Origin: Chloroflexota bacterium
Lineage (GTDB): Bacteria; Chloroflexota; Anaerolineae; Aggregatilineales; Phototrophicaceae
Direction of reading: 5' to 3'
NCBI GenBank assembly: GCA_028875245.1
Contig: JAPPEU010000033.1
Coordinates: 24,992 to 88,991 of the forward strand
Length of the DNA stretch: 64,000 bases
Shown here piece by piece: positions 9,879 through 40,990 of this stretch (the stretch's first letter is position 1; every line of letters starts with the position of its first letter). The notes below the pieces were generated by a model, which was given only the letters and a program-made list of their open reading frames with translations, was not told the DNA's origin and ran no database searches. Made by a program: the position numbers and the translations under genes.

Positions 9879-9969
9879 TGGTGAAATCGGCCTATATGTA
9901 AACAAATAGTCGCCCTTTGACGCGCGCGGGATGCTAGCCTGCGCGGAGACAAATCGAAGGAGCGACCCA

Positions 9970-11382: not shown

Positions 11383-11387
11383 GTTTT

Positions 11388-11433: not shown

Positions 11434-11446
11434 TAAGGTTATGTCG

Positions 11447-11674
11447 TTATGTCTCACATTTGTATTCGCGCTCAATCTGGCGCAGAGCTTCGCGCGCGGG
11501 CATCACATCGCCATTTTTCATCTGAATCAGGCTGACGCGCAAGTCTTCCAGAAACTCGGCTTGCGCTTCGGTAAGCTCCGACGATTCCGACCCGGTCGAC
11601 TCGCGTGTCGTGGGCGCCGATGACCCGTTGGCTCTTATGTGGCGCGGATGCCGGTCTGACTCATTGACTTTCAT
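11447..11674 (-). CDS. small hypothetical protein (75 aa), last gene of the low-GC module
   Basis: ORF begins 12 nt after the XRE-ImmA stop. The C-terminal 'EFLEDLRVSLIQMKNGDVMPAREAL' resembles antitoxin-type helices, but no family could be assigned. Confidence 0.4.
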   Translation of the reverse strand: MKVNESDRHPRHIRANGSSAPTTRESTGSESSELTEAQAEFLEDLRVSLIQMKNGDVMPAREALRQIEREYKCET

Positions 11675-11686
11675 TTCAAGTCTACA

Positions 11687-12793: not shown

Positions 12794-12805
12794 CGTACGA
12801 CCCTT

Positions 12806-13492: not shown

Positions 13493-13665
13493 ATCGCTTA
13501 CCTCTGGCCGTCCTAGTTCCAAGAAACTCTATCCGAAATTGTCAATAAATGATAATAAATTACTCACGAGCTTATATTTCCTCGATTATGCTGCAATTTA
13601 TCCTTGAGAGCAAGTGTAACATTCTCTGGCACCTGTGTCAAGCGAAGGGAATCCAGATTACCCCA

Positions 13666-15446: not shown

Positions 15447-15477
15447 CTCTCTGTGCCCTCTGTGCCTCTGTGGTGAA
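15447..15477. repeat. octamer-repeat module CTCTGTGCCCTCTGTGCCTCTGTGGTGAA
   Basis: Identical core to 19229..19259 and 39942..39972. Confidence 0.75.
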
Positions 15478-15586
15478 AAATCAAATCAGATTCCACCCAT
15501 GCGCCCCACACTCTACAGCATCGCCAATTCCGCGACCATCGGTTAGAATCTGCGCGTCCGGCAAGTCATCGTTTACTACGACAAAC

Positions 15587-16435
15587 ATGGATTTAGACAT
15601 GTCCATCAACTACAACCTAAAGCGCCAACATCTCGACCGCGACGGCTTCTGCCTGCTCGAAGGCATCATCGACGAGACCATGCTGGAGCGGCTGCGGCGG
15701 GTCACCGACCGGGCGATTGCGCGGCAGGAGGCGGCTCATTTTGAGCGCAATCGCGCCCAGGGCAGCCTGATTCGCGTCACCGAAGAGCCATACATGGCGC
15801 GGCTCATCGCTTATCCGCCGATGCTGGCGGCGCTGGCGCGGCTCGGTTTCCCCGATCCCAAATGGGGCAGCGGCTTCATCATCAGCAAACCGCCGCATAG
15901 CCCGCCTCTCTTCTGGCATCAGGACGCGCGCTTTTGGAACGACCCCATCAGTTACACCGCGCGCGCGATTCAGTGCTTTCTGATGATCTATCTGGTGGAT
16001 ACGACGCCGCATAACGGCTGTCTGCGGCTGATCCCCGGCTCGCATTTGAAGCGTCACCGGCTGCATGACGCCCTGCCCGACGCGCATGAGGAGACGCTGA
16101 GCCGCGCTGATGATATGGCGCAGTTGGCTTTTCAGCGGGCCGAGGGCGAGGTTGATGTGCCGGTGAAGGCGGGCGATGTGGTCATGGGCAGCGCGCGGCT
16201 GCTGCATGCGGCGCATGGCAACCAGAGCGATCGGCGCCGCAGCAATATCACGCTCTGGTATTATCCCGATTTCGCCAGTCTGCCCGAATCGATACAAGCC
16301 TATCTGGCGGAGGGAGACTGGCCCGCCGAGTGGCAGGCGGGAAATCAGGACTTGCTCGAGCCCCTGCGGCCTGTGTACGCGGGTGATGCCGAGCCGATCA
16401 CGCTTAATCGGAAGCCGGGACCCGAGCTGCGTTAA
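15587..16435 (+). CDS. phytanoyl-CoA dioxygenase (PhyH) family Fe(II)/2-oxoglutarate oxygenase
   Basis: 'FWHQDARFW', 'RLIPGSH' and 'LLHAAHGN' form an H-x-D...H facial-triad pattern. Confidence 0.8.
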   Translation: MDLDMSINYNLKRQHLDRDGFCLLEGIIDETMLERLRRVTDRAIARQEAAHFERNRAQGSLIRVTEEPYMARLIAYPPMLAALARLGFPDPKWGSGFIISKPPHSPPLFWHQDARFWNDPISYTARAIQCFLMIYLVDTTPHNGCLRLIPGSHLKRHRLHDALPDAHEETLSRADDMAQLAFQRAEGEVDVPVKAGDVVMGSARLLHAAHGNQSDRRRSNITLWYYPDFASLPESIQAYLAEGDWPAEWQAGNQDLLEPLRPVYAGDAEPITLNRKPGPELR

Positions 16436-17813
16436 GCGCGTACAATGTCGCCTTCTGAAACTCAAATACTAGCCGCAGCGTTTGGCCGGCGAGCTCGGCC
16501 GGGTCGCGCTCCCGCCAGCGCAATGGACAGCGCGCCCCGCCCTGCTTGATGGCGCGGCAATCGGCCATGCCGAAGCCGCTCACTTCCGCGCCGCCGGCAT
16601 CCATGATCATGGCGCGGATTGAGCCGCCCGGCTTGATGTCCGCGTTGACGCTCAGCCCGTCGCCGCGCAGCAGCAGGGGAGTCGTCTCGAGCCGCGCTGT
16701 TTGCTGCGGGTCGTCGGGAATATAGCCGGCCCAGCGGTCGATGGCCAGCGTCGCCAGGTTGAGCGAGCCTTCACGCCAGTTGTTGTGCAGGCCGTTGCTC
16801 CCGCCGTAGTAGATGAAAATCGCCCCGTCGTGGACGAAGGGCGCGGCGGCATAGACGCAGCCACAATCATGCTCGCCGTCGGGGTAGCTGCCGGCGCCAC
16901 GCGGAATCAGCGGCTGGCCCGGGCAGATGCGCTCCCAGTTGACGCTATCGACGCTGAAAGCCAATTCAGTGTCGACCGTATCCCAATCGGCGGCGCTCTC
17001 GTCGCCCTTGTGGAAAATAGACGGCAGGCCGATGGTCAGGTCGCCATAGCGGCAGATGGGCATGGAATAGATTTGGTCATGAGCGTCAGCGCCGCGCATG
17101 ATCTCGGCCGGCTCTGTCCAGTTGATGAAGTCCTCGCTTTCGCTGCGCAGGACGGTGCGGATGCCGGCCGACCAGCCGCGCGTGATGCAGATGTAGCGCT
17201 CAAGCGCGGGCGACCAGATGGCGTTGTTGTGGCAATCGCCGACGGCGTCATGCGCGCCCCAGAGAACGGGCTGCGACCAGCGGAGGCCATCCGCGGAGAA
17301 GCAGGTCGCCATACGCCGCGCCCGCGCATTGCGATGGATGAATTTGTAGCGCCGGGCCGGGTCGGGCTCGCGCGCGTCTTTGAGGACGCCGCCGGCATGG
17401 AGCCCGTGACTGCGCCGGCGCATGACCAGGTTGTTGGCCGTCGAGCCCTCGAAATCAATGAGCCCGAGCGCCGGTTTCTCCCAGTGGATGCCGTCGGATG
17501 AAATGGCGTAGAGCAGGCCCTCTTCGCGCTCGGATTCGCCGTAGGATTGATGCGGTCGCTGGGGCGGGGCTGTGCGATTGGACAAGCCGTCATAGATGAA
17601 GGCTTTGTACCAGCACTTGAAGAGGCCGTCTTCAGGGTCGTAGATGACGTTGGGGTAGACGTTGTCCAGGCGCGCTTCCCAGGGCTTGGGCGGCTCAGCG
17701 AAGGACTCCTCGACGAAGAGCGGATTGGCTGAGTGCTTCTGGACCGCGCCGAGCTTGAGCTTGGCGTTGGGAGTGGAGGCCACGATGCGCGAGTCAAGCA
17801 GTAGACGCGCCAT
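16404..17813 (-). CDS. beta-propeller glycoside-hydrolase-like protein (GH32/43/130-like fold) with C-terminal beta-sandwich
   Basis: Repeated 'W..P' blade motifs ('DGIHWEKPALG', 'DGLRWSQP', 'INWTEP', 'VNWERI'). The C-terminal 'LRLVFEFQKATLYAL' is typical of the sandwich domain of such hydrolases. The exact family was not determined. Confidence 0.5.
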   Translation of the reverse strand: MARLLLDSRIVASTPNAKLKLGAVQKHSANPLFVEESFAEPPKPWEARLDNVYPNVIYDPEDGLFKCWYKAFIYDGLSNRTAPPQRPHQSYGESEREEGLLYAISSDGIHWEKPALGLIDFEGSTANNLVMRRRSHGLHAGGVLKDAREPDPARRYKFIHRNARARRMATCFSADGLRWSQPVLWGAHDAVGDCHNNAIWSPALERYICITRGWSAGIRTVLRSESEDFINWTEPAEIMRGADAHDQIYSMPICRYGDLTIGLPSIFHKGDESAADWDTVDTELAFSVDSVNWERICPGQPLIPRGAGSYPDGEHDCGCVYAAAPFVHDGAIFIYYGGSNGLHNNWREGSLNLATLAIDRWAGYIPDDPQQTARLETTPLLLRGDGLSVNADIKPGGSIRAMIMDAGGAEVSGFGMADCRAIKQGGARCPLRWRERDPAELAGQTLRLVFEFQKATLYALNAARVPASD

Positions 17814-17835
17814 CGTCATCAGCAATCTCTCGACC

Positions 17836-19134
17836 TCAAGCGTGCACCCGCCGCGCCAGCGCTGTGAAGCGATCGATCATATCGTCAATGGCGAAAGACT
17901 CTTTGCCGATGATGAAAGAATGCGCCTTGTTGTTGAAGTTGCGGGTCCAGTGCTCGGGGATGGCGTCTTTTCCATAAGCGGCGCCGAAGATGCTGCCGGC
18001 GCTGGCGGCGGTGCAGTCATTGTCCAAGCCCATGGCCACCGTCTCGCCGATGACCTTGGTGAAGTTGTCTCCGCCGATGTTCAATCCCCAAATGGTCAGC
18101 GCCACATTGTTGATGGTGTGCACCGGGTGCATGCCGGCGTAGCGCTCCTCGGCGGCGGCGCGCGCGGCGCGATAATCCTTGATGTCGCCGGCGATGTCCA
18201 ATGCCCAGCGCACTTCGCGCGCCAGCACGCAATCAGCAGGTATCTCCGCCAGGCCGGCCTCAAGCGCCTGCAGTGGATCGCCCGTGGCGAAGGCGGCAGC
18301 AATGACGGCGGAGAAATACATAGCGCCGTAGATGCCGTTGCGGCGGCTGGAGACGGTGGCATTGCGCCAGGAGAATTCGGCTGCTTTTTCGGGATAACCG
18401 GGCGCGGCATAGCCCCAGGGGTCGGATTGAATGTCGCCGATGATCCAGAACATGGTAGGGTTGTCGACCGCGGCCGCCTGATTAGCTGGTATGCCCGCTT
18501 GCAGATTGCCGAGCACGGGCGACGCCGGCGAGACGGGCAGGTACTTGACCCAGGCCGCGCCGACATCGTCGGTGCTGAAGTCGATGCCATAATCTTCCAG
18601 GATGAGCATGCCCAGCTGCGTGTAGATGAGGTCGTCATCGGTGGGCACGCCGTCCATTTTTGCCGGCGTGAAGGCGTCGCGCCGGCTGGTCTCATACTTG
18701 TATTCAAAGGGCCGCTCGGCGGCGCTCCAGTAATCGGCGGGCGGAAAGGCTTCGCCGAGGTAAGCCGCCCAAGCCTCCATTTGCTCCGGCGCCCAAAGCT
18801 CGACGATCGAGCCCAAAGTGCAGCCGGCGCAGCGCCCCAGCCAGGCGCCCTCCAGGCGATCGCGGTAGGTCGCCTCGGGCAGCTCGGTCCAGTAGCGGCG
18901 CGTCCCGGCGGGCCGCAAGGCGCGTATCCCGTCCAGGTCATCCGGTTCGGCGGCGCGCAGAGCGGGGTCATCGGGCAGGGCGCGCAGCTCCGTCAGCTTT
19001 TCGGCGAGCAGTGATTTAATCTCCGCCAATTTTTCCGGGATGCCGGCGGCGCCGGTTTCCGTCTTCAGCTGCGCCCAGAGGTTGATCGTTCGGGCGCTGT
19101 CTTGCAGGCCTTCGGGGTAGTTGTAATTGGTCAT
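17836..19134 (-). CDS. ADP-ribosylglycohydrolase-like protein, tandem paralog P1 (most divergent)
   Basis: C-terminal 'AMGLDNDCTAASAGSIFGAAYG' ARH signature and 'VPTDDDLIYT'. About 100-aa N-terminal extension shared with P2-P4. Confidence 0.75.
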   Translation of the reverse strand: MTNYNYPEGLQDSARTINLWAQLKTETGAAGIPEKLAEIKSLLAEKLTELRALPDDPALRAAEPDDLDGIRALRPAGTRRYWTELPEATYRDRLEGAWLGRCAGCTLGSIVELWAPEQMEAWAAYLGEAFPPADYWSAAERPFEYKYETSRRDAFTPAKMDGVPTDDDLIYTQLGMLILEDYGIDFSTDDVGAAWVKYLPVSPASPVLGNLQAGIPANQAAAVDNPTMFWIIGDIQSDPWGYAAPGYPEKAAEFSWRNATVSSRRNGIYGAMYFSAVIAAAFATGDPLQALEAGLAEIPADCVLAREVRWALDIAGDIKDYRAARAAAEERYAGMHPVHTINNVALTIWGLNIGGDNFTKVIGETVAMGLDNDCTAASAGSIFGAAYGKDAIPEHWTRNFNNKAHSFIIGKESFAIDDMIDRFTALARRVHA

Positions 19135-19228
19135 GTATTATTCCTAATGCATTGTACGGTTGGGCGGATCGGCGGGCGACCCCAATGGGTCACTCCTGCA
19201 AGGATTCCAAGAATTGATGGCGCCCCGT

Positions 19229-19259
19229 TTTCTCTGTGCCCTCTGTGCCTCTGTGGTGA
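19229..19259. repeat. octamer-repeat module
   Basis: TTCTCTGTGCCCTCTGTGCCTCTGTGGTGA abuts the stop codon of P2. Confidence 0.75.
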
Positions 19260-19261
19260 GT

Positions 19262-20572
19262 TTATTCACCCGCCAGCGTTGTCTTCGCCAGCGCCGTGTA
19301 GCGCTCGAACATATCATCCAGCGCGAAATGGGGCTGCCCGATGATGTATGAATAGACCGTGTTATTGAAATTTCGCGTCCAGTGTTCAGGGATGGCGTCT
19401 ACCCCGTAAGCGGCGCCGAAGATGCTGCCGGCGGTGGCGGCGGTGCAATCGTTGTCGAGGCCCATGGCCACGGTTTCGCTGATGACTTTGCCGAAATCTT
19501 CACCGCCGATGGTCAGCCCCCAGATAGTCAGCGCGGCATTGTTGATGGTGTGAATGCGGTGCATGCCGGCGAAGCGCTCGTCGACGGCGGCGCGCGCCTC
19601 GCGGTAGTCATTGATGCCGCCGGCGGCTTCCAGCGCCCAGCGTATTTCGCGCGCCAGCAGGCAATCAGCGGGTATCTCCGCCAGGCCGGCTTCCAGCGCC
19701 TGCATTGGATCCCCCAGGGCGAAGGCGGCGGCGATCACAGCGGAGAAGTACATCGCGCCGTAGATGCCGTTTCGCCGATGGCTGATGGTCGCGTCGCGCC
19801 AGGCGAACTCAGCGGCTTTCTCGGGATAACCGGGCGCGGCGTAGCCCCAAGGGTCGGAGCGGATATCGGCGCCGATCCAGAACATGAAGGGATTATCGAC
19901 AGTCGCCGCAGCCATCGGCGGGACGCCGTTGTGCAAATTGCGCAGGGCGACGCCTTCCGCCGTCGCCGCATGGGGCAGGTATTTCATCCAGGCGGCGCCG
20001 ACATCGTCCACGCTGAAGCCGGGCCCATAATCTTCCAGGATGAGCATGCCCAGCTGGGTGTAGATGATGTCGTCATCGGTGGGCACGCCATCCATTTTGG
20101 AGCGGGTGAAGGCCTCGCGCAGGCTTGTCTTGTATTTGAGATCATGCGGCCGTTCCGCCTCGCTCCAATAATCAGTCGGCGGGAAGGCGTCGCCTAAGTA
20201 TTCCGCCCAGCGCTCCATCTTCTCGATCTCCCAGCATTCGACGATCGAGCCCAAAACACAGCCAGCGAAGCGTCCCATGATCGCGCCTTCAATGCGGTCG
20301 AGGTAGGAGTCTTCCGGCAGTTCTGTCCAGTAGCGGCGCGTCCCCGCCGGCCGCAGGGCGCGGATGCCATCCAGGTCGTCCGGTTCCAGCGCTTGCAGCG
20401 CGGGGTCATCGGGCAGGGCGCGCAGCTCGGCCAGCTTCTCGCTTAGCAGGACGTTGATCTCCCCCACTTTCTCGGCGACGCCGGGAGCGCCCGTTTCCGC
20501 CTTCAGCTGGGCCCAGACGTTTATGGACCGGTCGATGTCTTCCAGGGGCTCGGGATAATTATAGTTGGTCAT
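19262..20572 (-). CDS. ADP-ribosylglycohydrolase-like protein, tandem paralog P2
   Basis: Same architecture as P1. Both N-termini begin with the same MTNYNYPE octapeptide. Confidence 0.8.
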   Translation of the reverse strand: MTNYNYPEPLEDIDRSINVWAQLKAETGAPGVAEKVGEINVLLSEKLAELRALPDDPALQALEPDDLDGIRALRPAGTRRYWTELPEDSYLDRIEGAIMGRFAGCVLGSIVECWEIEKMERWAEYLGDAFPPTDYWSEAERPHDLKYKTSLREAFTRSKMDGVPTDDDIIYTQLGMLILEDYGPGFSVDDVGAAWMKYLPHAATAEGVALRNLHNGVPPMAAATVDNPFMFWIGADIRSDPWGYAAPGYPEKAAEFAWRDATISHRRNGIYGAMYFSAVIAAAFALGDPMQALEAGLAEIPADCLLAREIRWALEAAGGINDYREARAAVDERFAGMHRIHTINNAALTIWGLTIGGEDFGKVISETVAMGLDNDCTAATAGSIFGAAYGVDAIPEHWTRNFNNTVYSYIIGQPHFALDDMFERYTALAKTTLAGE

Positions 20573-20628
20573 GGGTTGCTCCTAAATGGTTGCATGCTTG
20601 TTCATATCGTCCTCTCAAGGAGAAACTT

Positions 20629-20742
20629 GTAGGGGCGTCTTGCTGAGACGCCCGCGTTCTGTACATGGGATTTCAGGCGAGCCGCCGTCTCGCCCCTACA
20701 GTTTCGAATGATTGCAGGCGACCCGGTTGGGCAGTCCCTACA
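20629..20742. repeat. cluster of GTAG-type GC-rich hairpins (REP/BIME-like)
   Basis: GTAGGGGCGTCTTGCTGAGACGCCC..., GGCGAGCCGCCGTCTCGCCCCTAC and GCAGGCGACCCGGTTGGGCAGTCCCTAC in alternating orientation. Confidence 0.75.
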
Positions 20743-20758
20743 ATCTCGCGCGCGGCGA

Positions 20759-22066
20759 CTAGCCCGCGGCGTGCGTCTTCTCCGCTTGCGCGACAAAGCG
20801 ATCGATGACGTCATCTATGGCAAATGGCGATTGGTGATAGAGGAAGGTATGCACCTTGTTGTTGAAGTTCTTGTACCAGTGTTTGGGGATGGCGCTTTTG
20901 CCATAGACGGCGCCCCAGATGCTGCCGGCGGTGGCGGCGGTGCAGTCGTTGTCCTTGCCCATGGCGACCGTCTCGCCGATGACCTTGCTGTAGTCCTCGC
21001 CACCAACCGTCAAGCCCCAAACGGTTAGCACGGTGTTGTTGATGGCATGCGCGCCGCCCATGACCGTATAGCGCTCCTCGATGGCGGCGGCGGCATCGCG
21101 ATAGTTCGCGATCTGCGGCGCGACTTCCAGCGCCCAGCGTGTCTCGCGCGCCAGGTAACAGTCGGCCGGTATTTCTTCGAGGCCGATCTTGAGCGCGTCG
21201 ACTGTGTTGTCGACGGCGAAGGCGGCTGAAATGGCGGCGGAGAAGAACATGGCGGCGAAGATGCCATTGCGCCGATGGCTCACGTAGGCGTCGCGATGGG
21301 CGAACTCGGCCGCTTTCTCCGGCCAGCCGGGCGCGGCATAACCCCAGGGGTCGGAGCGGATGTCGGCGCCGATCCAGTTCAGAAAGGGATTATCGACCTC
21401 GGCCGCCTGCAGCGGCGCGACGCCCTTGCGCAGGTTGTCGAGCGCGATGCCTTCGGCGGTGAAGGCGAAGGGCAAATACTTGATCCAGGCCTCGCCCAGC
21501 TCGTCGGTGGTGAAATCGAGCCCGTACTCCTCGAGGATCATCAGGCCGAGCAGCGTGTAGTTGAGGTCGTCATCGGTGGGTACGCCGTCCATCTTCGCCG
21601 GCGTGAAATCTTCGCGCAGGCTGGTCTGATACTTCTGCATGTGCGGCTGTTCGGCGACGCTCCAATAATCCACCAGCGGGTATTCGTCGCCGAGATAAGC
21701 GGCCCAATCTTCCATGCGTTCGACCGTCCAGCCTTCGACGATGGAACCGAGTGTGCAACCGGCGCAGCGCCCGAGCCAGGAGCCTTCGAGGCGCTCGCGA
21801 AAATCGTCGGCGAGCGAGTTCCACATTCGGCGTCCGCCGGCGGGGCGCAGGCGGCGGATCGTCTCCAGGTCGTCGGGTTCCGCTTTTGCCAGGGCGGCGT
21901 CGTTGGGCAGCGCGTCGAGCTCCGCGACTTTCTGCGCGAGCAGGGCTTCGATCTCGGCCACCTTTTCGGCCACGCCCGGCGCGCCAAACTCGACTTTCTG
22001 CTGGGCGTAGGCGTTGATCCTGCGTTCCCAGGCCGCTACCTTGTCCGGATATTCAAATAGACGCAT
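20759..22066 (-). CDS. ADP-ribosylglycohydrolase-like protein, tandem paralog P3
   Basis: GAGGAG RBS before the ATG at 22066 (MRLFEYPD). 'AMGKDNDCTAATAGSIWGAVYG'. Confidence 0.8.
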   Translation of the reverse strand: MRLFEYPDKVAAWERRINAYAQQKVEFGAPGVAEKVAEIEALLAQKVAELDALPNDAALAKAEPDDLETIRRLRPAGGRRMWNSLADDFRERLEGSWLGRCAGCTLGSIVEGWTVERMEDWAAYLGDEYPLVDYWSVAEQPHMQKYQTSLREDFTPAKMDGVPTDDDLNYTLLGLMILEEYGLDFTTDELGEAWIKYLPFAFTAEGIALDNLRKGVAPLQAAEVDNPFLNWIGADIRSDPWGYAAPGWPEKAAEFAHRDAYVSHRRNGIFAAMFFSAAISAAFAVDNTVDALKIGLEEIPADCYLARETRWALEVAPQIANYRDAAAAIEERYTVMGGAHAINNTVLTVWGLTVGGEDYSKVIGETVAMGKDNDCTAATAGSIWGAVYGKSAIPKHWYKNFNNKVHTFLYHQSPFAIDDVIDRFVAQAEKTHAAG

Positions 22067-22255
22067 GATGTTCTCCTCTGTGAAATTTCTTTGCCGACTG
22101 AATAAAGCTTTCTTCGTGGGATTGCTCGACACTATTTCGCCGTCTCTTGCGCCATTAGGCTACCCACTGCCTTTAGACACTCGCTAATGCAAGAATGATT
22201 GCGGTAACATAAAATTGCGTTAGCGTATCTGAACCAGATCGAGATCGGACAATCA

Positions 22256-22468
22256 ATGGAAAGCATTGTGGCAGAGTCGTTGTCGCCCGCGGATAATACT
22301 AGCACGACGCAAGAGTCTATCCGAGAGCGTATGAAAGGCATTGAAAAAGATATTGAGTGGATCAAACGGCTGCTCTTTGTCATGATCGCCGGTATGCTCG
22401 CATTGTTTGTAGTTCTCTATGAGCTGCGAGGGACAGTTGAAGCGATTCAGAATAGCTTGTCAAACTGA
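22256..22468 (+). CDS. small coiled-coil protein with C-terminal transmembrane helix (XhlA-like topology)
   Basis: 70-aa ORF in a low-GC pocket, on the opposite strand to its neighbours. 'IEWIKRLLFVMIAGMLALFVVLY' is a hydrophobic helix. Weak RBS. Confidence 0.45.
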   Translation: MESIVAESLSPADNTSTTQESIRERMKGIEKDIEWIKRLLFVMIAGMLALFVVLYELRGTVEAIQNSLSN

Positions 22469-22584
22469 ACTGTTGTCCGCGCCAAAGCCAGCATTTGATT
22501 TGATGGTTGTGATGCAATGCCATTTCCTAAACTTATCAAAATGTTGACGGGCGACCTCACAGATTCGAAACGAATGCGGTTCGC

Positions 22585-23892
22585 CTAACTCTCCGCCATG
22601 ACCCTTTCGGCCTGGGCGGCGAAGCGATCTACGGTGTCATCAATGGCGAAGGTCCGCTTGCCGTTCAGGTAAGAGTGCATCGTGTTGTTGAAGTTGCGCG
22701 TCCAATGTTCCGGTATCGCGCTCGCCCCATAGACGGCGCCGAAGATGCTGCCCGCGGTGGCGGCCGTGCAGTCGTTATCCTGGCCCATGGCGACGGTCTC
22801 GCCGATGACCTTGGTGTAGTCATCACCGCCGACGGCCAAGCCCCAAACCGTCAGAGCGTTGTTCTGCAGGGAATGCGACTTCCACAAGCCGGGATAGCGT
22901 TCTTCACAGAGCGCGGCGGCGTCTTTGTAACCGGAAATCGACGGCGCCTTATCCAGCGCCCAGCGAATTTCACGCGCCGTAATGGACTCGGCGGGAATCT
23001 CTTCCAGGCCGATTTGCAGCGCTTCCATCGGATCGTCGACGGCGAAGGCGGCCGCGATCGCCGCTGAGAAGTACATGGCGGAATAGATGCCGTTGCGGCG
23101 GTGGCTGATTGTCGCGTCGCGCCAGGCGAATTCGGCCGCTTTTTCCGGCCAGCCGGGCGCGGCGTAGCCCCAGGGGTCGGAGCGGATATCGGCGCCGATG
23201 AAGTTGAGGCAGGGGTTGTTGAGCGCGCCCGCTTGCAACGCCGGCACGCCATTGCGCAGGTTCTCCAGCGCGACGCCCTCGGCGGTGAAGGCGAAGGGCA
23301 GGTATTGCACCCAGGCGGCGCCCACATCTTCGACGGTGAAATCGGGACCGTATTCTTCCAGAATCAGCAGGCCAAGCGCGGTATAGTTGAGGTCGTCATC
23401 GCTGGGCACGCCGTCCATCTTGGCGGGCGTGTAATCGTGGCGGGTGCTGACCTTGAGCCGGGGCTCGTGGGGCTGTTCCGCCTGGCTCCAATAATCCACG
23501 AGCGGGAAGGGGTCGCCGATATAAGCGGCCCAGCGCTCCATGCGGTCGACCTTCCAGCCTTCGACGATAGAGCCGAGCGTGCAGCCGGCGCAGCGCGCCA
23601 GCCAGGCCCCTTCCAGCCGATCGCGGAAGTCGTCGGGGAGCGATGTCAGCATGCGGCGGCGGCCGGCGGGGCGCAAGGCCAGGATGGACGGCAGATCGTC
23701 TGGCTCCGCCTGCTCCAGCGCGGGGTCATTGGGCAGCGCGTCGAGCTCCGCGACTTTCTGCTTGAGCAGCGCTTCAATCTCGGCGACCTTTTCCGCGACG
23801 CCCTGGGCGCCGAATTCGACCTTTTGCTTGGCATAGCGGTTGATGGTCAGCTCCCAGCCTTCCAAATCGTCAACATAATCAAAAAGCTTCAT
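22585..23892 (-). CDS. ADP-ribosylglycohydrolase-like protein, tandem paralog P4
   Basis: ATG at 23892 (MKLFDYVDD). 'AMGQDNDCTAATAGSIFGAVYG'. Confidence 0.8.
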   Translation of the reverse strand: MKLFDYVDDLEGWELTINRYAKQKVEFGAQGVAEKVAEIEALLKQKVAELDALPNDPALEQAEPDDLPSILALRPAGRRRMLTSLPDDFRDRLEGAWLARCAGCTLGSIVEGWKVDRMERWAAYIGDPFPLVDYWSQAEQPHEPRLKVSTRHDYTPAKMDGVPSDDDLNYTALGLLILEEYGPDFTVEDVGAAWVQYLPFAFTAEGVALENLRNGVPALQAGALNNPCLNFIGADIRSDPWGYAAPGWPEKAAEFAWRDATISHRRNGIYSAMYFSAAIAAAFAVDDPMEALQIGLEEIPAESITAREIRWALDKAPSISGYKDAAALCEERYPGLWKSHSLQNNALTVWGLAVGGDDYTKVIGETVAMGQDNDCTAATAGSIFGAVYGASAIPEHWTRNFNNTMHSYLNGKRTFAIDDTVDRFAAQAERVMAES

Positions 23893-24081: not shown

Positions 24082-24873
24082 TTATTTGGCGCGCAGAAGC
24101 GACAAAAGCTGCGCGGCATTCTGGCGGGCGGCTTTGCGCCGATCCGGCCATTGGTGCGGTTCAAGGCAATAGTAACCGCCATAGTTCGCCGCCTTCAGCG
24201 CCGCCACTTGCCCTGCCAGGTCAACGACGCCGTCATTGATCGCCACCCAGCCCGCCTCAGCCGTCCAGTTTTTGAAGTGGACATGGGCGATCAGATCGCG
24301 CGCCGCGTCATAACCGGCGGGGTAGGCGGTTTCGCCGGAGGCGGCCGCGTTGGCCGGATCCCACGCGACTTTGACGCCGAGGGTCCGCGCGATCGTCGCC
24401 AGATTGGCGCCGGTATCGGCATAGATGCTGGAGACGTTTTCCAGCAGGACTTCAATGCCTTCGCGCGCGCAGAGGTCAATCGCCCGGCCAAGATGGTCGT
24501 AAATGGCCGCCGGAATCGCTTCAGAGCGGCTCTCGCGCCGGAAGCTGAAGAGGGTCATGCGCCGAATCTCCAGGCGCTGCATCAGGCGAAAGGCCGTTGG
24601 CAGGCGCGTCTCGAAGGTCTCCGCGATATCGGCCGCGTCCAGCGGCCCCTTGAAAAAGCCGGGGCTGACGCCGATCAGCTCCAGGTCGAGATCGGCGGCG
24701 GTATCCGCCACTTCTTGCAGAGCCCGCTCGGTCACATCCGGGAAGCGCCGGCCCGCCAGCGCGCGCAGCTCATAAGCGCGAATGCCCAGCGACCGCCCCA
24801 GCCTCGCCGCCTCGGCGAAGGAGTCGTCAATCTCGTCGCTGACGATGGCGAGTCGGTCCGTCCAGTCGGTCAT
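24082..24873 (-). CDS. sugar phosphate isomerase/epimerase (xylose-isomerase-like TIM barrel)
   Basis: 'LAIVSDEIDDSF', 'ENVSSIYADTG', 'VHFKNW' and 'YCLEPH' pattern typical of the AP-endonuclease-2/TIM family. Confidence 0.75.
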   Translation of the reverse strand: MTDWTDRLAIVSDEIDDSFAEAARLGRSLGIRAYELRALAGRRFPDVTERALQEVADTAADLDLELIGVSPGFFKGPLDAADIAETFETRLPTAFRLMQRLEIRRMTLFSFRRESRSEAIPAAIYDHLGRAIDLCAREGIEVLLENVSSIYADTGANLATIARTLGVKVAWDPANAAASGETAYPAGYDAARDLIAHVHFKNWTAEAGWVAINDGVVDLAGQVAALKAANYGGYYCLEPHQWPDRRKAARQNAAQLLSLLRAK

Positions 24874-24993
24874 TGCTTGCCTTTGTCCTGTCGGTTGTCT
24901 TCGCCTACTTCCGACAATGGTAACGCTTCCCGCGCGCCACTGCACGAAATGCGGGGCGACACTGGCGTCGCTCGCAACACATTAGGATGATTT

Positions 24994-25320: not shown

Positions 25321-26427
25321 ATGAAGATAACGGATATCGAACTGCGCCAATATCGCTGGGAGCGAGGCGCGCCGATTCGCAACGGCATGCACACCTACGT
25401 CTGGACCGGAATTGGTCTCATCCACATTCACACCGACGAGGGCGTCAGTGGTATTGGCTGGGCGCTGGAGCCGCAGCATGCCGGTATCGCGCAGGTGGCC
25501 GCGGGCTTGCTCGAATATTGCAAGCCCCTTCTCATCGGCGAAGATCCCTTCAATTATCGGCGAATCTGGGAGAAGCTCTGGGTACCGAAGCTGGTCGGCC
25601 GGCGCGGCTTGACCACGCGCTTCATCAGCGGGATTGATATCGCGCTCTGGGATTTGATGGGGGTAGCGACCGGCAAGTCGGTGCACAAGCTGCTGGGCGC
25701 GGCGCAAGCGCGCGTGCCGGCCTACATCGCGGGCGGCTATTACGAAGAGGGCAAGGGGCTGGCGGGCCTGGCGGCGGAAATGGAAGCGAACCTGGCCCTG
25801 GGCGCCAAGGCGGTCAAGATGAAGATCGGCGGGGCTTCAATTGCGGAAGATGTCGAGCGCGTCCGCGTCGTGCGCGAGACCATCGGGCCCGATGTCGACT
25901 TGATGGTCGATGCCAACTGCGCCTACAGCGGGCGCGACGCGGTCAAACTTGCGCGCAAAATCGAGCGTTACGACATTTTCTGGTTCGAGGAGCCGCTGCC
26001 GCCGGATGATTATCGCGGGCATGGCCGGTTGGCCGCCGCGACATCCATCCCGATCGCCACCGGCGAGAACGAGTATACGCGCTACGGATTCCGCGATCTC
26101 ATCGCCCATGACGCGGCCGCCATCTTTAATGCCGATGCGCAATTGCTGGGCGGCATCACCGAGTTCATGAATGTCGCCGCCCTGGCCGCGGCCCATGACC
26201 TGCACATCGCGCCTCATGGCGATCAGGAGATTCACCTGCATCTCGTCGGCGCGATTCCCAACGGGCTCATCGTGGAATATTATCGCGACACGATTGACGC
26301 CAACCGCGGGAATCTGTTTGAGGAAAAACTGAGTTTGGATGATGACGGCTGGCTGACGGTTCCCGATCGTCCCGGGCTGGGCTTCACGCCGAATTACGAC
26401 TTTCTCGAGCGGCATCGGCTGGCTTAG
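25321..26427 (+). CDS. enolase-superfamily enzyme (mandelate racemase/muconate lactonizing family, acid-sugar dehydratase-like)
   Basis: 'VKMKIGG', 'LMVDANCAY', 'FWFEEP' and 'IATGENE' metal-ligand pattern. Confidence 0.85.
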   Translation: MKITDIELRQYRWERGAPIRNGMHTYVWTGIGLIHIHTDEGVSGIGWALEPQHAGIAQVAAGLLEYCKPLLIGEDPFNYRRIWEKLWVPKLVGRRGLTTRFISGIDIALWDLMGVATGKSVHKLLGAAQARVPAYIAGGYYEEGKGLAGLAAEMEANLALGAKAVKMKIGGASIAEDVERVRVVRETIGPDVDLMVDANCAYSGRDAVKLARKIERYDIFWFEEPLPPDDYRGHGRLAAATSIPIATGENEYTRYGFRDLIAHDAAAIFNADAQLLGGITEFMNVAALAAAHDLHIAPHGDQEIHLHLVGAIPNGLIVEYYRDTIDANRGNLFEEKLSLDDDGWLTVPDRPGLGFTPNYDFLERHRLA

Positions 26428-37536: not shown

Positions 37537-38481
37537 CTAGGCATTGCGCAGGCGCTCAGCCGCCAGCGCCACCACTTGCTCGCCATCGACGCCGACGCAG
37601 ACATTGACCAGCGGGCGACCTTCCCAGGCCGGCAGCGTTTGACCACCGGTGGCGGGCCAGGTCTTGCCGCGCCCCAAACCCTGCCTGCCGACGCGGATCG
37701 CCCAGCGCCGAACCTGAAAAAGAGCGGGATCAATCAAGTAGGCGATTGCGCTTGAGTCATGCACGAAGATGCCTTCGGCGTCATAATTCGCTTCGAAATA
37801 ATTGCGGTAATGCGGCAGGATGCGGCTGATATGATCCGACATTGGATTGCCATGCGCGGCGTATTCGTCGATATGCTCGGGCCGCATGTGCACGCGCAGG
37901 GTCACATCCAGGCCGACCATTGTCACCTGCCAGTCGGCGCCGAAGACGACATCGGCCGCTTCCGGATCGTTGCGGATATTGGCTTCGCCGGCGGGGCTGG
38001 CGTTGCCCGGCACGAGAGCGTTCCCGCCCATCAGCACGACTTCGTCGACCCAGTCGGCGATGCGCGGCTCCAGCCGCAGGGCGAGCGCGATATTGGTCAG
38101 AGGACCGACGGGGACCAGCGTGATCTCCCCCGGATGGGCGCGCAGCTGTTCGATGATGAATTGGGCGGCGCTGAGGTCGATGGCGGTTCCGGCGGGGTCG
38201 GGGGCGAAAATATCGCCCTGGCCGTCCTCGCCATGCACGAAGGGGACGGGCCCCTCAAAAGGTTGGGCGAGAGCGTCGACGGCGCCTTGCGCGACCGGGA
38301 TCTCGGCGCGGCCGGCGATCTCGAGCAGGCGCAGGGCGTTCTTCGTTGCCAGCTCGGTATGCACGTTGCCGAAGATAGTGGTCAAGCCGATGACATCCAG
38401 CTCGGGCGAGCAGAGGGCGAAGAAGATCGCCATCGAATCGTCAACGCCGGGGTCGGTGTCGATTATGATTTTGCGCGGCAT
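37537..38481 (-). CDS. inosine/uridine-preferring nucleoside hydrolase family protein
   Basis: ATG at 38481 with a GAGGGAAGGG RBS. 'IIIDTDPGVDDSMAI' DxDxxxDD signature. Confidence 0.85.
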   Translation of the reverse strand: MPRKIIIDTDPGVDDSMAIFFALCSPELDVIGLTTIFGNVHTELATKNALRLLEIAGRAEIPVAQGAVDALAQPFEGPVPFVHGEDGQGDIFAPDPAGTAIDLSAAQFIIEQLRAHPGEITLVPVGPLTNIALALRLEPRIADWVDEVVLMGGNALVPGNASPAGEANIRNDPEAADVVFGADWQVTMVGLDVTLRVHMRPEHIDEYAAHGNPMSDHISRILPHYRNYFEANYDAEGIFVHDSSAIAYLIDPALFQVRRWAIRVGRQGLGRGKTWPATGGQTLPAWEGRPLVNVCVGVDGEQVVALAAERLRNA

Positions 38482-38536
38482 AGTGGCTGCCCTTCCCTCT
38501 CTGGCCTCAATAACTTCGGTGACCTCGACGGTAATA

Positions 38537-38944
38537 TCATCCCGCGATGATCTTGACTTGCACCTGCCGGCTGCGCGGGCCATCGAACTCATAGAACAAG
38601 ATGCTCTGCGACCAGCCCACGAGCAGCTCGCCGCCGTCGATCGCCAGTGTGATTGAGTTTCCCACCAGGGTCGCTTTGATGTGGGCGGCGGCGTCGGCGG
38701 GCGTGTCATATTGGTGGACGAAATCGACGCGCGTCGGCACCAGTCGCTTGACATCGGCCAGGATATCGGCCGGCGTCGCCGGGTCCAGCCCCGAATTTAG
38801 CGTGATGGCGGCGGTGGTATGCGGCACGATGAGAACGCAGATGCCCGCTTGGACGCCGCTTTTGGCCACGAGCGCCTTCGCCTGCTCCGTGATATCCACC
38901 AAGGCGTCGCCCGCCGATGTTTCGATTTCAATCTGTTTCAGCAT
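38537..38944 (-). CDS. YjbQ/UPF0047 family protein (secondary thiamine-phosphate synthase-like)
   Basis: 'VPHTTAAITLN', 'AHIKATLVG' and 'GWSQSILFYEFDGPR' are typical family motifs. Confidence 0.8.
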   Translation of the reverse strand: MLKQIEIETSAGDALVDITEQAKALVAKSGVQAGICVLIVPHTTAAITLNSGLDPATPADILADVKRLVPTRVDFVHQYDTPADAAAHIKATLVGNSITLAIDGGELLVGWSQSILFYEFDGPRSRQVQVKIIAG

Positions 38945-39894
38945 GACAAATGGATTCCTGTATTATGGCGGTCGAGAATCGCTTGTGCGTCGGCGCGGGA
39001 TGGCGCATTTCGCCCCGCTCCGGCTCGCGCCACGCTGGCCGCGCCCATCGCATTGGCGATTGTGCCACATTCCCGCCGGGAATACCCGTTCAAATCGGCC
39101 CAGATGTAGGCGGCGGCAAAGGCGTCGCCCGCGCCGACCGTATCCACCACGTCAACTTCAAAGCCCGGGATAAGCGCATCACCCGCGCCCGACATGATGT
39201 GACAGCCGGCCTCCGCCAGCTTCAGGACAATGGTCAGCGATGGCAAGCGGCCCAGCAGCGCGCGGCAGGCAGCGGCGCCCGCCCCGCCCGCGGTCACGAA
39301 GGGGATCTCGTCTTCGGTCAGCAGCAGCACATCAACGACGCTCAGAGTTTGCTCAATTTTTGCTGGCGATAATTGCCCCAGGAAGGGCCCGACATCGAAG
39401 TAGACGCGGGCTTCGGCGCGCTCCAGGCCTTCCAACAGGCCCTTGACCAGGCCAGCCAGCCTGTCTTCCACCAAGGTATAACCGGGGATGAAGACCGCAT
39501 CGGTTCTCGCCAGCAGGTCCCGCGCCGGCTGCGTGATGGGGATATCAGCGCCGACGCCATAATGCCCCAGGAAGACGTGCTCGCCCCGCTCCAGGTCGGT
39601 GAGCGCGAGCACGGTGGTCGTTGTGCTGCCGGGCGGGATGATCAGGGCTGAGACATCGACCGCGGCGTCGCGGAGGATATCCAGCAGCATGCGCCCTTGC
39701 ATGTCATCGCCGACCGCCCCCAGCGCCGCGACGTGCAGGCCCATGCCGCGCGCCGCAAGGATTGTTGTGCAAGCGCCGCCGGCTTCGAATTGCAGGCGCT
39801 CCGCGGTTTGATGGCGGCCGGCCTGTACCGGCAAGCGCGCATCCAGTAGCAGATCAACAACCAGATCGCCGACGGTCACCAATCGCTTAGCCAT
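38938..39894 (-). CDS. PfkB-family carbohydrate/nucleoside kinase
   Basis: 'VVDTVGAGDAFAAAY' catalytic motif and N-terminal 'VGDLVVDL'. Overlaps the yjbQ-like start by 7 nt. Confidence 0.8.
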   Translation of the reverse strand: MAKRLVTVGDLVVDLLLDARLPVQAGRHQTAERLQFEAGGACTTILAARGMGLHVAALGAVGDDMQGRMLLDILRDAAVDVSALIIPPGSTTTTVLALTDLERGEHVFLGHYGVGADIPITQPARDLLARTDAVFIPGYTLVEDRLAGLVKGLLEGLERAEARVYFDVGPFLGQLSPAKIEQTLSVVDVLLLTEDEIPFVTAGGAGAAACRALLGRLPSLTIVLKLAEAGCHIMSGAGDALIPGFEVDVVDTVGAGDAFAAAYIWADLNGYSRRECGTIANAMGAASVARAGAGRNAPSRADAQAILDRHNTGIHLSC

Positions 39895-39941
39895 CAGCTG
39901 GCCACATCAGCGTATGCCCACCGAGGTCCATAGATGCAGTT

Positions 39942-39972
39942 TTCTCTGTGCCCTCTGTGCCTCTGTGGTGAA
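39942..39972. repeat. octamer-repeat module
   Basis: TTCTCTGTGCCCTCTGTGCCTCTGTGGTGAA lies between the ARH stop and the PfkB start. Confidence 0.75.
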
Positions 39973-39994
39973 TCTCAACCATCCAAAACTCAAG

Positions 39995-40990
39995 CTATCG
40001 CGTTTCAATCAGACGCTGCAAGCCCGCCGCAATCTCGCGCACATTGTAGGATTGGAAGACTTCATCGTTTTCCAGGACGGCGACATCGTCGGCGCGCAGC
40101 GCGTCAAAGCCGGCGAAGGCCCCGGCCATGGCGCAGGCGATCGCGCCGATGGTATCGGCATCGCCGGAGAGATTCGCCGCCAGGATCGCCGTCTCTTTGG
40201 GGTCGCCTTGCCCTAGGGCAAGCAGCCCGAAAGCCGCGCCGACGGTCTCCGGCACATTCAGAGTGGCGCCGACTTCGTCGTAAATCCGCCGCAATTTCAA
40301 GCGTTGATCGGCGTCGTCAGAGGCGATTTCAAGCGCTTGCTCAATTTTGAATGGCACCGAACAGCCGAACCAGGGCCGTCCGTGGGCGCGCCCCAGCTCA
40401 GCGCCGCGCAATCCGGCGGCAATCACATCGTCCAGCGAGGCGCCTTCGCCCAGCGCCGCGGCAACGGCAGCCGCCACCGCGGCCGCGCCCGAGACCGCCG
40501 GTCGGGTGAAATGCGTGGGCATGCAAACAGTGACAGCGTCGGCGACGGCGCCCTCGATATCGCCCGGATGCAGGGCGCCGATGGGCGCGATGCGCATGGG
40601 CGCGCCGTTGGTATCACCCCATAGGCCGGTCCGTCGCGGGTCCTCGCCGGCTTTGAGCACATTGATGCCGCGCCGCGTGCTGGGCCCGACGAAGGGACAG
40701 TTATCGCCATCGACGCGGTCGTACCAGGCGACCAGTCCCGTAACCGCCGCGTCGAGGGTGACGCCGCCGGCGTCGATCACCGCTTGGGCGATGGAGAAGG
40801 CTTGTTCGGAATCGTCGGTGATGCGCCCGGCGGGCAGGCCAGCGTGCACCAGGTGATCGGCGGGGGCGGGCTGCCAGCTATCGAGCCAGCCGAAGCAGCG
40901 CTCGGTGTCTCCGGGGTGGACTTGGGCGGGCATGGCGAAGGCGTCGCCGAGGGCCTGGCCGTAGAGGCAGCCGAGGATTTTGTTGAGCAT
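39995..40990 (-). CDS. canonical ADP-ribosylglycohydrolase family protein
   Basis: 'GCLYGQALGDAFAMPAQ', 'ITDDSEQ' and 'SGDADTIGAIACAMAGAFAG' are the classical ARH/DraG motifs. Confidence 0.85.
   Translation of the reverse strand: MLNKILGCLYGQALGDAFAMPAQVHPGDTERCFGWLDSWQPAPADHLVHAGLPAGRITDDSEQAFSIAQAVIDAGGVTLDAAVTGLVAWYDRVDGDNCPFVGPSTRRGINVLKAGEDPRRTGLWGDTNGAPMRIAPIGALHPGDIEGAVADAVTVCMPTHFTRPAVSGAAAVAAAVAAALGEGASLDDVIAAGLRGAELGRAHGRPWFGCSVPFKIEQALEIASDDADQRLKLRRIYDEVGATLNVPETVGAAFGLLALGQGDPKETAILAANLSGDADTIGAIACAMAGAFAGFDALRADDVAVLENDEVFQSYNVREIAAGLQRLIETR

Follow-up and report, generated by a model that had tools for sequence, protein, structure and literature searches.

The gene array and its surroundings

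The window (the whole stretch of 64,000 nucleotides that was analysed) contains four minus-strand genes, here called P1 to P4, which lie where the original prediction placed them and encode proteins of 432–436 residues (Table 1). The longest open reading frames of P3 and P4 would extend to 22132 and 23937, but the shorter starts originally given appear preferable, as supported by orthologue lengths of 434–436 residues and by AGGA/GGAGA sites. The four proteins are paralogues that are 62–75% identical to each other, and they form the two pairs expected, with 75% identity for P1/P2, 71% for P3/P4, and 62–63% between the pairs.

Table 1. Genes of the array and its neighbourhood, with positions in the window.
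Feature	Position	Strand	Remarks
PhyH-family Fe(II)/2-oxoglutarate dioxygenase	15470..16435	+	convergent with the array; syntenic in many loci
β-propeller protein, 471 aa	16404..17819	-	five-bladed β-propeller plus β-sandwich; GH130/GH32/GH43 fold, resembling glycoside hydrolases/phosphorylases
P1	17836..19134	-	432 aa; PF03747 E 1.2e-35
P2	19262..20572	-	436 aa; full subfamily motif set
P3	20759..22066	-	435 aa; GGAGA ribosome-binding site ahead of ATG at 22066
Small ORF, 70 aa	22256..22468	+	single-TM; in the P4/P3 gap, antisense to the array
P4	22585..23892	-	435 aa; SDDD instead of TDDD
Xylose-isomerase-like TIM barrel (AP_endonuc_2)	24082..24945	-	upstream of P4, same strand; syntenic in most loci
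Enolase-superfamily (MR_MLE) gene, acid-sugar dehydratase-like	25321..26427	+	near the array
IU-nucleoside hydrolase, PfkB kinase and canonical ARH	37537..40990	-	module in the window
Canonical ARH of this module, 331 aa	39995..40990	-	lacks the N-terminal extension

The small ORF in the gap between P4 and P3 is conserved in 10 related loci, at 41–81% amino acid identity (60–81% in nine of them), and in locus L050 a gene is called at the equivalent position. Because this conserved antisense gene stands between P4 and P3, the array is not a single operon: it is divided into two transcription units, with P4 apart from P3. A promoter scan gave a weak promoter-like site upstream of P4, at 23961–23933; Rfam, promoter and terminator scans of the region from 15 to 30 kb of the window gave nothing significant.

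The neighbours are as originally described. The β-propeller gene starts 16 bp past the stop codon of P1 and always follows the array. Its product was modelled by AlphaFold2 with a pLDDT of 89, and Foldseek matches the model to GH130 phosphorylases and to GH32/GH43 enzymes with E-values of 2e-11 to 1e-8 and target-normalised TM scores of up to 0.72. It shares the five-bladed propeller with the GH130 mannoside phosphorylases and hydrolases and with GH32/GH43, and the C-terminal β-sandwich with GH32/GH43. It differs from all of these in having only 8–18% identity and no family profile match: there was no Pfam match even at E <= 5, no NCBIfam match and no PDB sequence match. For the enolase-superfamily gene, which adjoins the array in seven related loci, the best sub-threshold matches are talarate/galactarate and arabinonate dehydratase.

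In dozens of related genomes the propeller, TIM barrel, PhyH and enolase-superfamily dehydratase genes are fixed beside the array. Genes for a nucleoside hydrolase and a PfkB kinase are often found within a few kb of it, and in six relatives the module containing these two genes and the canonical ARH is directly beside it. We also note a defence or mobile block (RosmerTA-like, MTase-Mrr, phage portal) at 1–8 kb from the array.

Fold and metal ligands

All four proteins match the full ADP-ribosylglycohydrolase (ARH) profile PF03747 (positions 1–287 of 287), starting at about residue 95, with E-values of 1e-35 to 1e-45 and scores of 124–156 bits against a cut-off of 26.2. Searches of NCBIfam, PADLOC and PDB sequences found no specific family for them. 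The AlphaFold2 model of P2 has a pLDDT of 88 and a pTM of 0.90, and has the fold of ARH3, DraG and MJ1187 at 15–22% identity. Foldseek matches the all-α ARH fold of the model to ARH3, DraG, MJ1187, TTHA and Tri1 with a probability of 1.00; the matches include Tri1 (6dre/6drh) and a Listeria ART-ARH immunity pair (8za7). For ARH3 and ARH1 the target-normalised TM scores are 0.6–0.73, with 15–18% identity. The N-terminal extension is approximately 95 residues long, helical and confidently modelled, with the conserved AEPDDL...LRPAG.RR block that had been noted; it is absent from the canonical ARH of the same window. The C-terminal block MG.DNDCTAA.AGSI.GA.YG and a DDD loop are present in all four proteins, although the TDDD form originally ascribed to all of them does not extend to P4.

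The listed metal ligands of ARH1 and ARH3 are E...[T/S]DDT...D[T/S]D[T/S], and the Asp of the GDxxG motif is not among them (PMC6309922, PMC8141533). Alignments to DraG, Tri1, MJ1187 and ARH3 agree that this Asp, equivalent to ARH3 D34, is replaced by Cys in P1–P4. The replacement was originally taken to make a non-canonical first metal motif. This is a misassignment, because the D34 equivalent is not a listed ligand and the first ligand, the Glu equivalent to E41, is kept.

To map the ligands, verified human ARH3 was aligned by hhalign. A global run that used a broader profile gave a probability of 98%; with the narrow alignment A2, or with a representative profile in local mode, only the C-terminus was aligned. 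The mapping pairs E112 with E41, D166/D167 with D77/D78, D373/D375 with D314/D316, and C376 with T317. The Glu, the vicinal Asp pair and both Asp of the DxD are thus present in P1–P4, so that all acidic ligands are kept, and the final hydroxyl ligand is Cys in all four (DxDC rather than DxD(T/S)). It is worth adding that this change lies inside a motif quoted in the original prediction, where it was not flagged. The first hydroxyl ligand is Thr or Ser in P1–P4 but varies across the subfamily, and an extra Asp takes the place of the trailing Thr. The adenine-stacking loop region cannot be aligned.

In the pocket, G234, R238 and H265 align with ARH3 G152, R156 and H182, and are kept in P2–P4. 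The ARH1 counterparts of this Gly and His make contact with the pyrophosphate (PMC6309922). P1 keeps the metal ligands but is altered at pocket residues that are otherwise invariant in the subfamily (T204A, E206P, G234I, R238Q, H265S), and these changes are common to 26 P1 orthologues. The loss of the Arg and His, with the metal ligands kept, suggests that P1 has either changed its specificity or become a non-catalytic partner. Its dN/dS is 0.18.

A distinct subfamily

A search at E <= 1e-30 gave 559 clusters (at 50% identity) from Chloroflexota, Clostridia, Planctomycetota, Bathyarchaeia and Halobacteria. Most of the proteins have 430–470 residues and match from query position ~40–60. The subfamily is defined by three features: the helical N-terminal extension of about 95 residues, in which an E-P-x-(D/E)-L..I block is invariant; a first core helix with GC replacing GD; and the ligand set E ... 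x-D-D-D ... D-x-D-C, as against E ... [T/S]DDT ... D[T/S]D[T/S]. Among 117 representatives, the hallmarks are E63, P64 and I70, with C105 in 100 and C376 in 90 (Ser in 23). The DDD is almost invariant, and the first Asp motif of the wider subfamily is xDDD. We considered C105 and C376 as an obligate pair, forming a disulfide or a shared metal site, and rejected this: there are 81 C/C, 16 C/S, 8 non-C/C and 7 non-C/S combinations, a weak association that is confounded by phylogeny.

Clostridia, archaea and others have single copies. Where these more distant members have informative neighbours, they are PfkB kinases, IU-nucleoside hydrolases, Bmp-type nucleoside ABC transporters, sugar ABC or MFS transporters, and glycoside hydrolases. 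In Clostridia the ARH gene overlaps a PfkB gene or is part of a sugar-ABC/DUF4434/PfkB operon, and in Halobacteriaceae and Anaerolineaceae PfkB, IU-nucleoside hydrolase and Bmp nucleoside ABC transporter genes are near it. The module with a nucleoside hydrolase and a PfkB kinase that is seen in the window is also beside subfamily members of other phyla (loci L053 and L054), and in locus L060 the ARH gene directly adjoins an MFS transporter gene whose stop codon ends on the ARH start at position 7001. Five of ten distant neighbourhoods were uninformative or pointed elsewhere (for example pyrimidine biosynthesis, a glycyl-radical enzyme, luciferase-like oxygenases).

One of the two original readings made the array part of an undescribed pathway. 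This is correct only in the sense that no subfamily member has been characterised; the subfamily is a large group that already bears the annotation "ADP-ribosylglycohydrolase family protein". The diverse representatives have only generic cluster names, NCBIfam has no curated model for the extension-bearing subfamily, and a literature search for ARH with sponge/Chloroflexi, DUF4434/DUF4127, PfkB or YegU found nothing relevant.

Age of the array

About 35 loci from Aggregatilineales/Anaerolineae metagenome-assembled genomes share the order P4-P3-P2-P1 with the β-propeller gene after it, each gene being matched by its own orthologue. Each paralogue is 78–95% identical to its own orthologues (85–95% for P3), compared to 62–75% between paralogues, and the conclusion is that the array is old and not a recent duplication. 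All four are under purifying selection, with dN/dS of 0.10–0.18. The synonymous divergence between paralogues (pS 0.46–0.58) is near saturation and is uninformative. About 20 of the arrays are complete, with fixed gene order and co-retention of the four genes, while six loci lack P1, P2 or P4 and keep the rest.

Possible functions

We propose that P1–P4, which belong to a distinct ARH-fold subfamily, act in the cytoplasm as binuclear-metal glycohydrolases with a catabolic role, probably as ribosidases diversified for different substrates. We give this a probability of about 0.6. The assignment of function is made through guilt by association, and the gene context favours catabolism, which was one of the two roles originally suggested. 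Two rounds of single-gene duplication in the ancestor of this Aggregatilineales/Anaerolineae lineage would have produced P4, P3, P2 and P1, which have been kept side by side ever since, followed by the GH130/GH32-like propeller gene, in a carbohydrate and nucleoside catabolic neighbourhood. Each paralogue may hydrolyse an imported small-molecule glycoside, or a 5-phosphate made from it by a kinase, at the anomeric (ribosyl-type) bond, and the released sugar would be passed on to PfkB-type kinases, isomerases and dehydratases. The paralogues would differ in their specificity for the aglycone or the sugar. Possible parallels are the "kinase + glycosidase" nucleoside modules of the E. coli yegTUV and psuK/psuG types, where the gene of a PfkB kinase adjoins those of a glycohydrolase and a transporter or is coupled to them in translation. 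YegU, a short canonical ARH, has no assigned function, and PsuG has a different fold; unlike P1–P4, neither is known to carry the extension or the Cys changes.

To our knowledge, ARH-fold enzymes are known almost solely as erasers of ADP-ribosylation, and cleavage at C1'' of ADP-ribose is the sole chemistry known for the fold. P1–P4 could thus be regulators like DraG, ARH1 or ARH3 that strip ADP-ribose from the cell's own proteins, from nucleic acids or from O-acetyl-ADP-ribose, each copy with a different target. They share with ARH3 and ARH1 the all-helical fold, the catalytic Glu, the vicinal Asp pair, the DxD and, in P2–P4, the pocket Gly, Arg and His. Since the residues aligning with the pyrophosphate-contacting Gly and His are kept, P2–P4 may act on genuine ADP-ribose-type substrates. 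However, P1–P4 differ from ARH3 and ARH1 in the extension, in having GC for GD and Cys for the last Thr/Ser ligand, and in the third Asp after the DD pair; the preceding hydroxyl ligand is not conserved across the subfamily, and the adenine-stacking loop region, as noted, does not align. DraG, a Mn-type binuclear ARH, ranks first among the PDB matches by sequence (3g9d, E 4e-8 with the profile), but the sequence alignment covers no more than the C-terminal ~80 residues and the DraG model TIGR02662 scores 27–35 bits against a cut-off of 337. No draT or nif genes are among the annotated neighbours in the window, nor are there sirtuin or ART neighbours; the genes that do recur nearby encode transporters, sugar kinases and glycosidases. 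A regulatory role would also make it hard to explain four conserved copies beside a glycosidase-like propeller, and we consider it unlikely.

The fixed order and co-retention of the complete arrays, and the persistence of purifying selection on P1 despite its lost pocket residues, could also mean that P1–P4 assemble into one hetero-oligomeric enzyme, in which P1 would be a pseudo-enzyme subunit with altered catalysis. This is quite improbable in view of the loci that lack P1, P2 or P4 but keep the others, the single copies in Clostridia, archaea and elsewhere, and the transcriptional separation of P4 from the other three. In addition, the characterised ARHs that we know of are all monomers.

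The second role originally suggested was immunity of the Tri1 type. In this case the proteins would reverse the modification made by an ART toxin and also occlude the toxin by means of the N-terminal extension. Tri1, a Serratia ADP-ribosylarginine hydrolase, does have an ARH core with an N-terminal extension, it and the Listeria pair were found by Foldseek, and there is defence-related DNA close to the array. But L050 lacks that block, which is an insertion, and the Tri1 model NF041672 gives only 27–29 bits, from the C-terminal motif, against a cut-off of 490. The extension of P1–P4 is not matched by that of Tri1; it is subfamily-wide, being conserved across phyla in metabolic contexts, and archaea and free-living polysaccharide degraders have it too. 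Neither the neighbours in the window nor about 60 related loci include a gene for an ART toxin, a T6SS or a polymorphic toxin, and PADLOC gave no matches. The four copies also evolve slowly as orthologues, whereas rapid turnover is expected of immunity arrays. We conclude that this role is very improbable.

Finally, it is scarcely credible, given the age of the array, that a local duplication arose recently, was homogenised by gene conversion and left copies that do not differ in function. This idea draws on a 33-nt perfect run between P3 and P4, which is real and is not common to their orthologues (in the closest relative, L001, the two copies differ at 6 sites along it), but P1 and P2 have a similar run of 32 nt, and all orthologues conserve the peptide encoded by the 33-nt stretch. 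Gene conversion is thus rejected as an explanation of the array, and the hint of it in the original prediction is weak, allowing at most a 33-nt micro-tract.

Returning to catabolic glycohydrolases, a more specific proposal can be made, tentatively and with less than even odds by a wide measure. The subfamily could be a new class of metabolic ribosidase with a Cys-containing binuclear centre for softer metals (Mn/Fe/Zn), partnered by PfkB as PsuG is by PsuK: the kinase might make a 5-phosphoribosyl (possibly α-linked) conjugate, which the ARH-like enzyme would convert to ribose-5-phosphate and the aglycone. The array, the GH130-like propeller and the dioxygenase might then degrade a host metabolite, such as an unusual nucleoside or glycoside, specifically in Chloroflexota associated with marine invertebrates, and P1 could be neofunctionalised for non-phosphorylated substrates.

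Nothing is overturned by the finding alone, as the P1–P4 genes are already annotated as ARH-family. Nevertheless, a large and phylogenetically broad subfamily, with no characterised member and located in transporter, kinase and glycosidase clusters, points to a metabolic use of the ARH fold that is yet to be explored. The four paralogues are a natural set of close enzymes, one of them with a remodelled pocket, for mapping the determinants of specificity, and the array may show which glycosides, from the host or from the environment, these Chloroflexota consume.

Four paralogs with an N-terminal extension

P1-P4 are four consecutive minus-strand ORFs, as the original prediction stated, and the proteins are clearly paralogous, with identities in protein alignments of 75% for P1/P2, 71% for P3/P4, and 62-63% for P1 against P3 or P4. 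The start codons proposed for P3 and P4 lie within longer ORFs, and are backed by a GGAGA or AGGA upstream of each and by the lengths of P1-P4, which agree with those of more than 100 database homologues (432-436 aa). The whole PF03747 (ADP_ribosyl_GH) profile matches each of the four proteins (E 1e-35 to 1e-45). The match begins only at residue ~95, and the predicted helical N-terminal extension of ~95 aa is therefore real. The AlphaFold2 model of P2 (pLDDT 88, pTM 0.90) indeed has four confident helices in residues 13-73, before the ARH core, and the canonical ARH of the window has no such extension.

The only low-confidence segment of the P2 model is at residues 138-159 (pLDDT < 50). This loop is conserved in sequence (Y135, W136, E140, P142, R152 and T156), and could, judging by the model, act as a mobile lid that covers the active site.

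Features of the window, with coordinates and strand
Feature	Position	Strand	Remarks
Mobile/defence block	~7466-15393		M23 peptidase, phage portal, RmrA-like pair, DNA methylase-Mrr fusion
Phage portal protein	9931-11382		Part of mobile/defence block
HTH + M78 peptidase protein	11687-12793	-	PADLOC match to RmrA (RosmerTA antitoxin-like component), E ~1e-65
ORF adjoining the RmrA-like gene	12806-13522	-	238 aa; without matches
DNA methylase-Mrr fusion	13666-15393		Part of mobile/defence block
Propeller protein	16404-17819	-	471 aa
P1	17836-19134	-	432 aa; from ORF listing
P2	19262-20572	-	436 aa; from ORF listing
P3	20759-22132	-	435 aa; start taken as 22066
Small ORF	22256-22468	+	70 aa, one predicted TM helix; antisense in the 519-bp P4/P3 gap
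P4	22585-23937	-	435 aa; start taken as 23892
IU-nucleoside hydrolase (IUNH)	37537-38754		Module with canonical ARH
PfkB kinase	38938-39894		Module with canonical ARH
Canonical ARH	39995-40990	-	331 aa
ABC transporter (BPD_transp_2 x2 + ABC ATPase)	41599-46560		Beside IUNH/PfkB/canonical ARH module

Metal ligands and the divergence of P1

The ligand sets of ARH1 and ARH3 are E ... SDDT ... DSDS and E ... [T/S]DDT ... DTDT, respectively (PMC6309922). The ligands in human ARH3 are T76, D77, D78 and D316 for MgA, and D314, D316 and T317 for MgB (PMC8141533). A profile of 121 subfamily sequences was aligned using hhalign in global mode with a canonical profile, made from the canonical ARH of the window and human ARH3 (sequence checked against PDB 6D36), giving a probability of 98%. 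In this alignment P2 residues C105, E112, T165, D166/D167, D168, G234, R238, H265, D373/D375 and C376 correspond to ARH3 D34, E41, T76, D77/D78, T79, G152, R156, H182, D314/D316 and T317, respectively. The register of C105, E112 and the DxDC motif is identical in HMMER alignments to DraG, Tri1 and MJ1187.

The acidic ligands align. The first metal motif had been described as non-canonical: the change from Asp to Cys is genuine, but D34 is not among the listed ligands, and Glu, the first of these, is unchanged. It is the last ligand that is non-canonical, Thr/Ser being replaced by Cys (C376). P2 also has a third Asp (D168) following the DD pair. A thiol replacing a hydroxyl ligand, together with this third Asp, suggests from sequence a preference for a metal softer than Mg. 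In the canonical ARH the corresponding sequence is GDAFAMPAQ: the usual catalytic/ligand Glu (ARH3 E41) is replaced by Gln, and TDD and DADT are kept.

P1 was compared at positions at least 88% conserved across the subfamily. Its orthologues (n=26) carry T204A, A205S, E206P, G234I, A235G, R238Q/R, D260N/D and H265S/C; P2, P3 and P4 keep the consensus at these positions, and every metal ligand is kept in P1. Of the altered positions, R238 and H265 correspond to ARH3 R156 and H182, and pyrophosphate contacts by the equivalent Gly and His are stated to be absolutely conserved in ARH1 and ARH3 (PMC6309922). These changes suggest that P1 probably has a different substrate or a non-catalytic role.

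A widespread subfamily

An exhaustive profile search gave 3343 clusters (50% identity) at E ≤ 1e-3, and 559 at E ≤ 1e-30. Subfamily clusters are mostly 430-470 aa long, with matches that start at query position ~40-60. They are found in Anaerolineae, Clostridia, Armatimonadota, Hydrogenedentota, Victivallales, Sedimentisphaerales, Omnitrophica, Bathyarchaeia and Halobacteriaceae. Among 117 full-length representatives, the hallmarks of the extension are E63 (103/117), P64 (107/117) and I70 (106/117). In the core, C105 is present in 100 and E112 in 115 of the 117, D166, D167 and D168 in 113-116 each, D373 and D375 in 112 each, and C376 in 90, with Ser instead in 23. C105 and C376 mostly co-occur, with exceptions. 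Further hallmarks are G234, A235, I237, R238, D240, H265, N268, G269, H341 and N345; T165 is variable.

Database names for these proteins are solely "ADP-ribosylglycohydrolase family protein" or "hypothetical", and the closest solved structure to the P2 model has 22% identity (Foldseek). There is no subfamily-specific NCBIfam model: the DraG and Tri1 models score P1-P4 at 27-35 bits, below their cut-offs of 337 and 490. This ARH branch is a distinct, widespread and uncharacterised subfamily, which includes a conserved, lineage-specific four-gene expansion. The word "undescribed" in the original prediction holds only in that no subfamily member is characterised; the ARH fold and annotation are already known, and the function of the subfamily is inferential.

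Some distant subfamily members (P0443 and P0444, 524-526 aa; locus L058) have a fused N-terminal HTH_3/HTH_19 DNA-binding domain, and adjoin genes for GH172 and an AraC regulator. The fusion may serve to sense a ligand, or may join enzyme and regulator in one protein.

Conservation and age of the array

A scan of the genome collection gave 49 loci, and tblastn with all of the window genes found the order TIM barrel – P4 – P3 – P2 – P1 – 471-aa gene – PhyH in ~35 loci from Aggregatilineales/Phototrophicaceae/Anaerolineae MAGs, which speaks against a recent local duplication. Many of these MAGs may be from sponge or coral holobionts, judging by the bin-naming conventions. The complete four-gene array is present in ~20 loci. 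Identity is 78-95% between each paralog and its own orthologue but only 62-75% between paralogs, and orthologue dN/dS is low (P1 0.18, P2 0.14, P3 0.10, P4 0.12). It follows that all four copies are maintained, and that the duplications are older than the divergence of these genomes. The nearest outgroups, from Clostridia, are at most 53% identical, which makes the array an expansion specific to this lineage. The resemblance of P4 to P3 and of P2 to P1 shows that single genes were duplicated in succession, and not a two-gene unit as a whole.

P1 is absent from five related loci (L011-L013, L016 and L028) and P2 from one (L034). P1-P4 may form a hetero-oligomer in which P1 is a pseudo-subunit, but this is disfavoured by such genomes lacking individual paralogs, and by homologues elsewhere that occur in single copy. 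P1 is present twice in L010. In L014 its match is broken into two separate pieces, possibly a frameshift or pseudogene, and elsewhere in that genome (L035) P1, propeller and PhyH genes form a separate module.

The 33-nt identical run shared by P3 and P4, proposed as a hint of gene conversion, does exist. No other orthologue has it, and over this stretch the closest relative shows 6 differences between its two copies. However, P1 and P2 share a comparable run of 32 nt, and the encoded peptide, QKVAELDALPN, is kept in all orthologues. The run would at most be a micro-conversion tract.

The small antisense ORF between P4 and P3 is conserved in position in 10 related loci (41-81% amino acid identity, 60-81% in nine), and gene calling in the related locus L050 also places a gene there. 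The ORF probably encodes a genuine small membrane protein and divides the array into two transcription units.

Genomic surroundings and function

The propeller protein gene starts 16 bp past P1. The protein has no sequence-level match in Pfam, NCBIfam or PDB. Its AlphaFold2 model (pLDDT 89) is a five-bladed β-propeller plus a β-sandwich, resembling GH130 mannoside phosphorylases and GH32/GH43 enzymes (Foldseek E 2e-11 to 1e-8). A second propeller paralog, 23-29% identical, lies just upstream of P4 in nine related loci (L007, L010, L014, L017, L023, L027, L031, L033 and L038), and L050 has a BNR_2 sialidase-like gene (4932-6050 in that locus) beside the enolase gene, upstream of P4; neither is present in the window.

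The window neighbours are a PhyH dioxygenase, a xylose-isomerase-like TIM barrel and an enolase-superfamily dehydratase-like gene, together with GT1, LacI, a second PhyH, a sugar ABC transporter and SnoaL proteins. In six relatives (L003, L016, L020, L034, L037 and L050) P4 is directly abutted by the IUNH/PfkB/ARH module or by an enolase/SnoaL/IUNH block. Among distant subfamily members, those of Clostridia include an ARH gene that follows an AraC regulator and overlaps with a PfkB gene (L040), and one that lies beside GH38 and PGM (L042). A Ruthenibacterium operon (L043) encodes an SBP, two permeases, DUF4127, an N-acetyltransferase, PfkB, DUF4434, two ARH genes and a CofE-like gene. In Halobacteriaceae (L053) and Anaerolineaceae (L054) there are PfkB, one or two IU-nucleoside hydrolases and a Bmp/BPD_transp_2 nucleoside-type ABC transporter near the ARH gene, and in L060 the end of an MFS transporter gene coincides exactly with the start of the ARH gene. 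Some distant members are near GH172, SASA or sulfatases; for others the surroundings are uninformative.

The mobile/defence block is flanked by PhyH on one side and SWIM/adh_short/M20 genes on the other. L050 has nothing but an aminotransferase gene and an Exo_endo_phos gene between the same flanks, which marks the block as an insertion. The 238-aa ORF within it could be the toxin partner of the RmrA-like protein.

The evidence supports a metabolic role, as metal-dependent glycohydrolases acting on imported small glycosides, and the kinase, nucleoside hydrolase, transporter and glycosidase surroundings support the catabolic alternative of the original prediction. The substrates are most likely ribosyl-type compounds, given the chemistry known for the ARH fold, the retention of ribose/phosphate-contacting residues, and the recurring PfkB kinases, nucleoside hydrolases and nucleoside transporters alongside. 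Removal of ADP-ribose from proteins, as by DraG/ARH-type enzymes, is a less likely role, which this genomic context argues against: the loci examined (window, relatives and distant) encode no ADP-ribosyltransferase, T6SS or nif/draT. Tri1-type immunity, the other alternative originally offered, is largely refuted by the Tri1 model score, the same lack of ADP-ribosyltransferase and T6SS genes, and the absence of any PADLOC match for P1-P4. As putative metabolic glycohydrolases, members of the subfamily offer a clear and testable way into a non-signalling use of the ARH fold.
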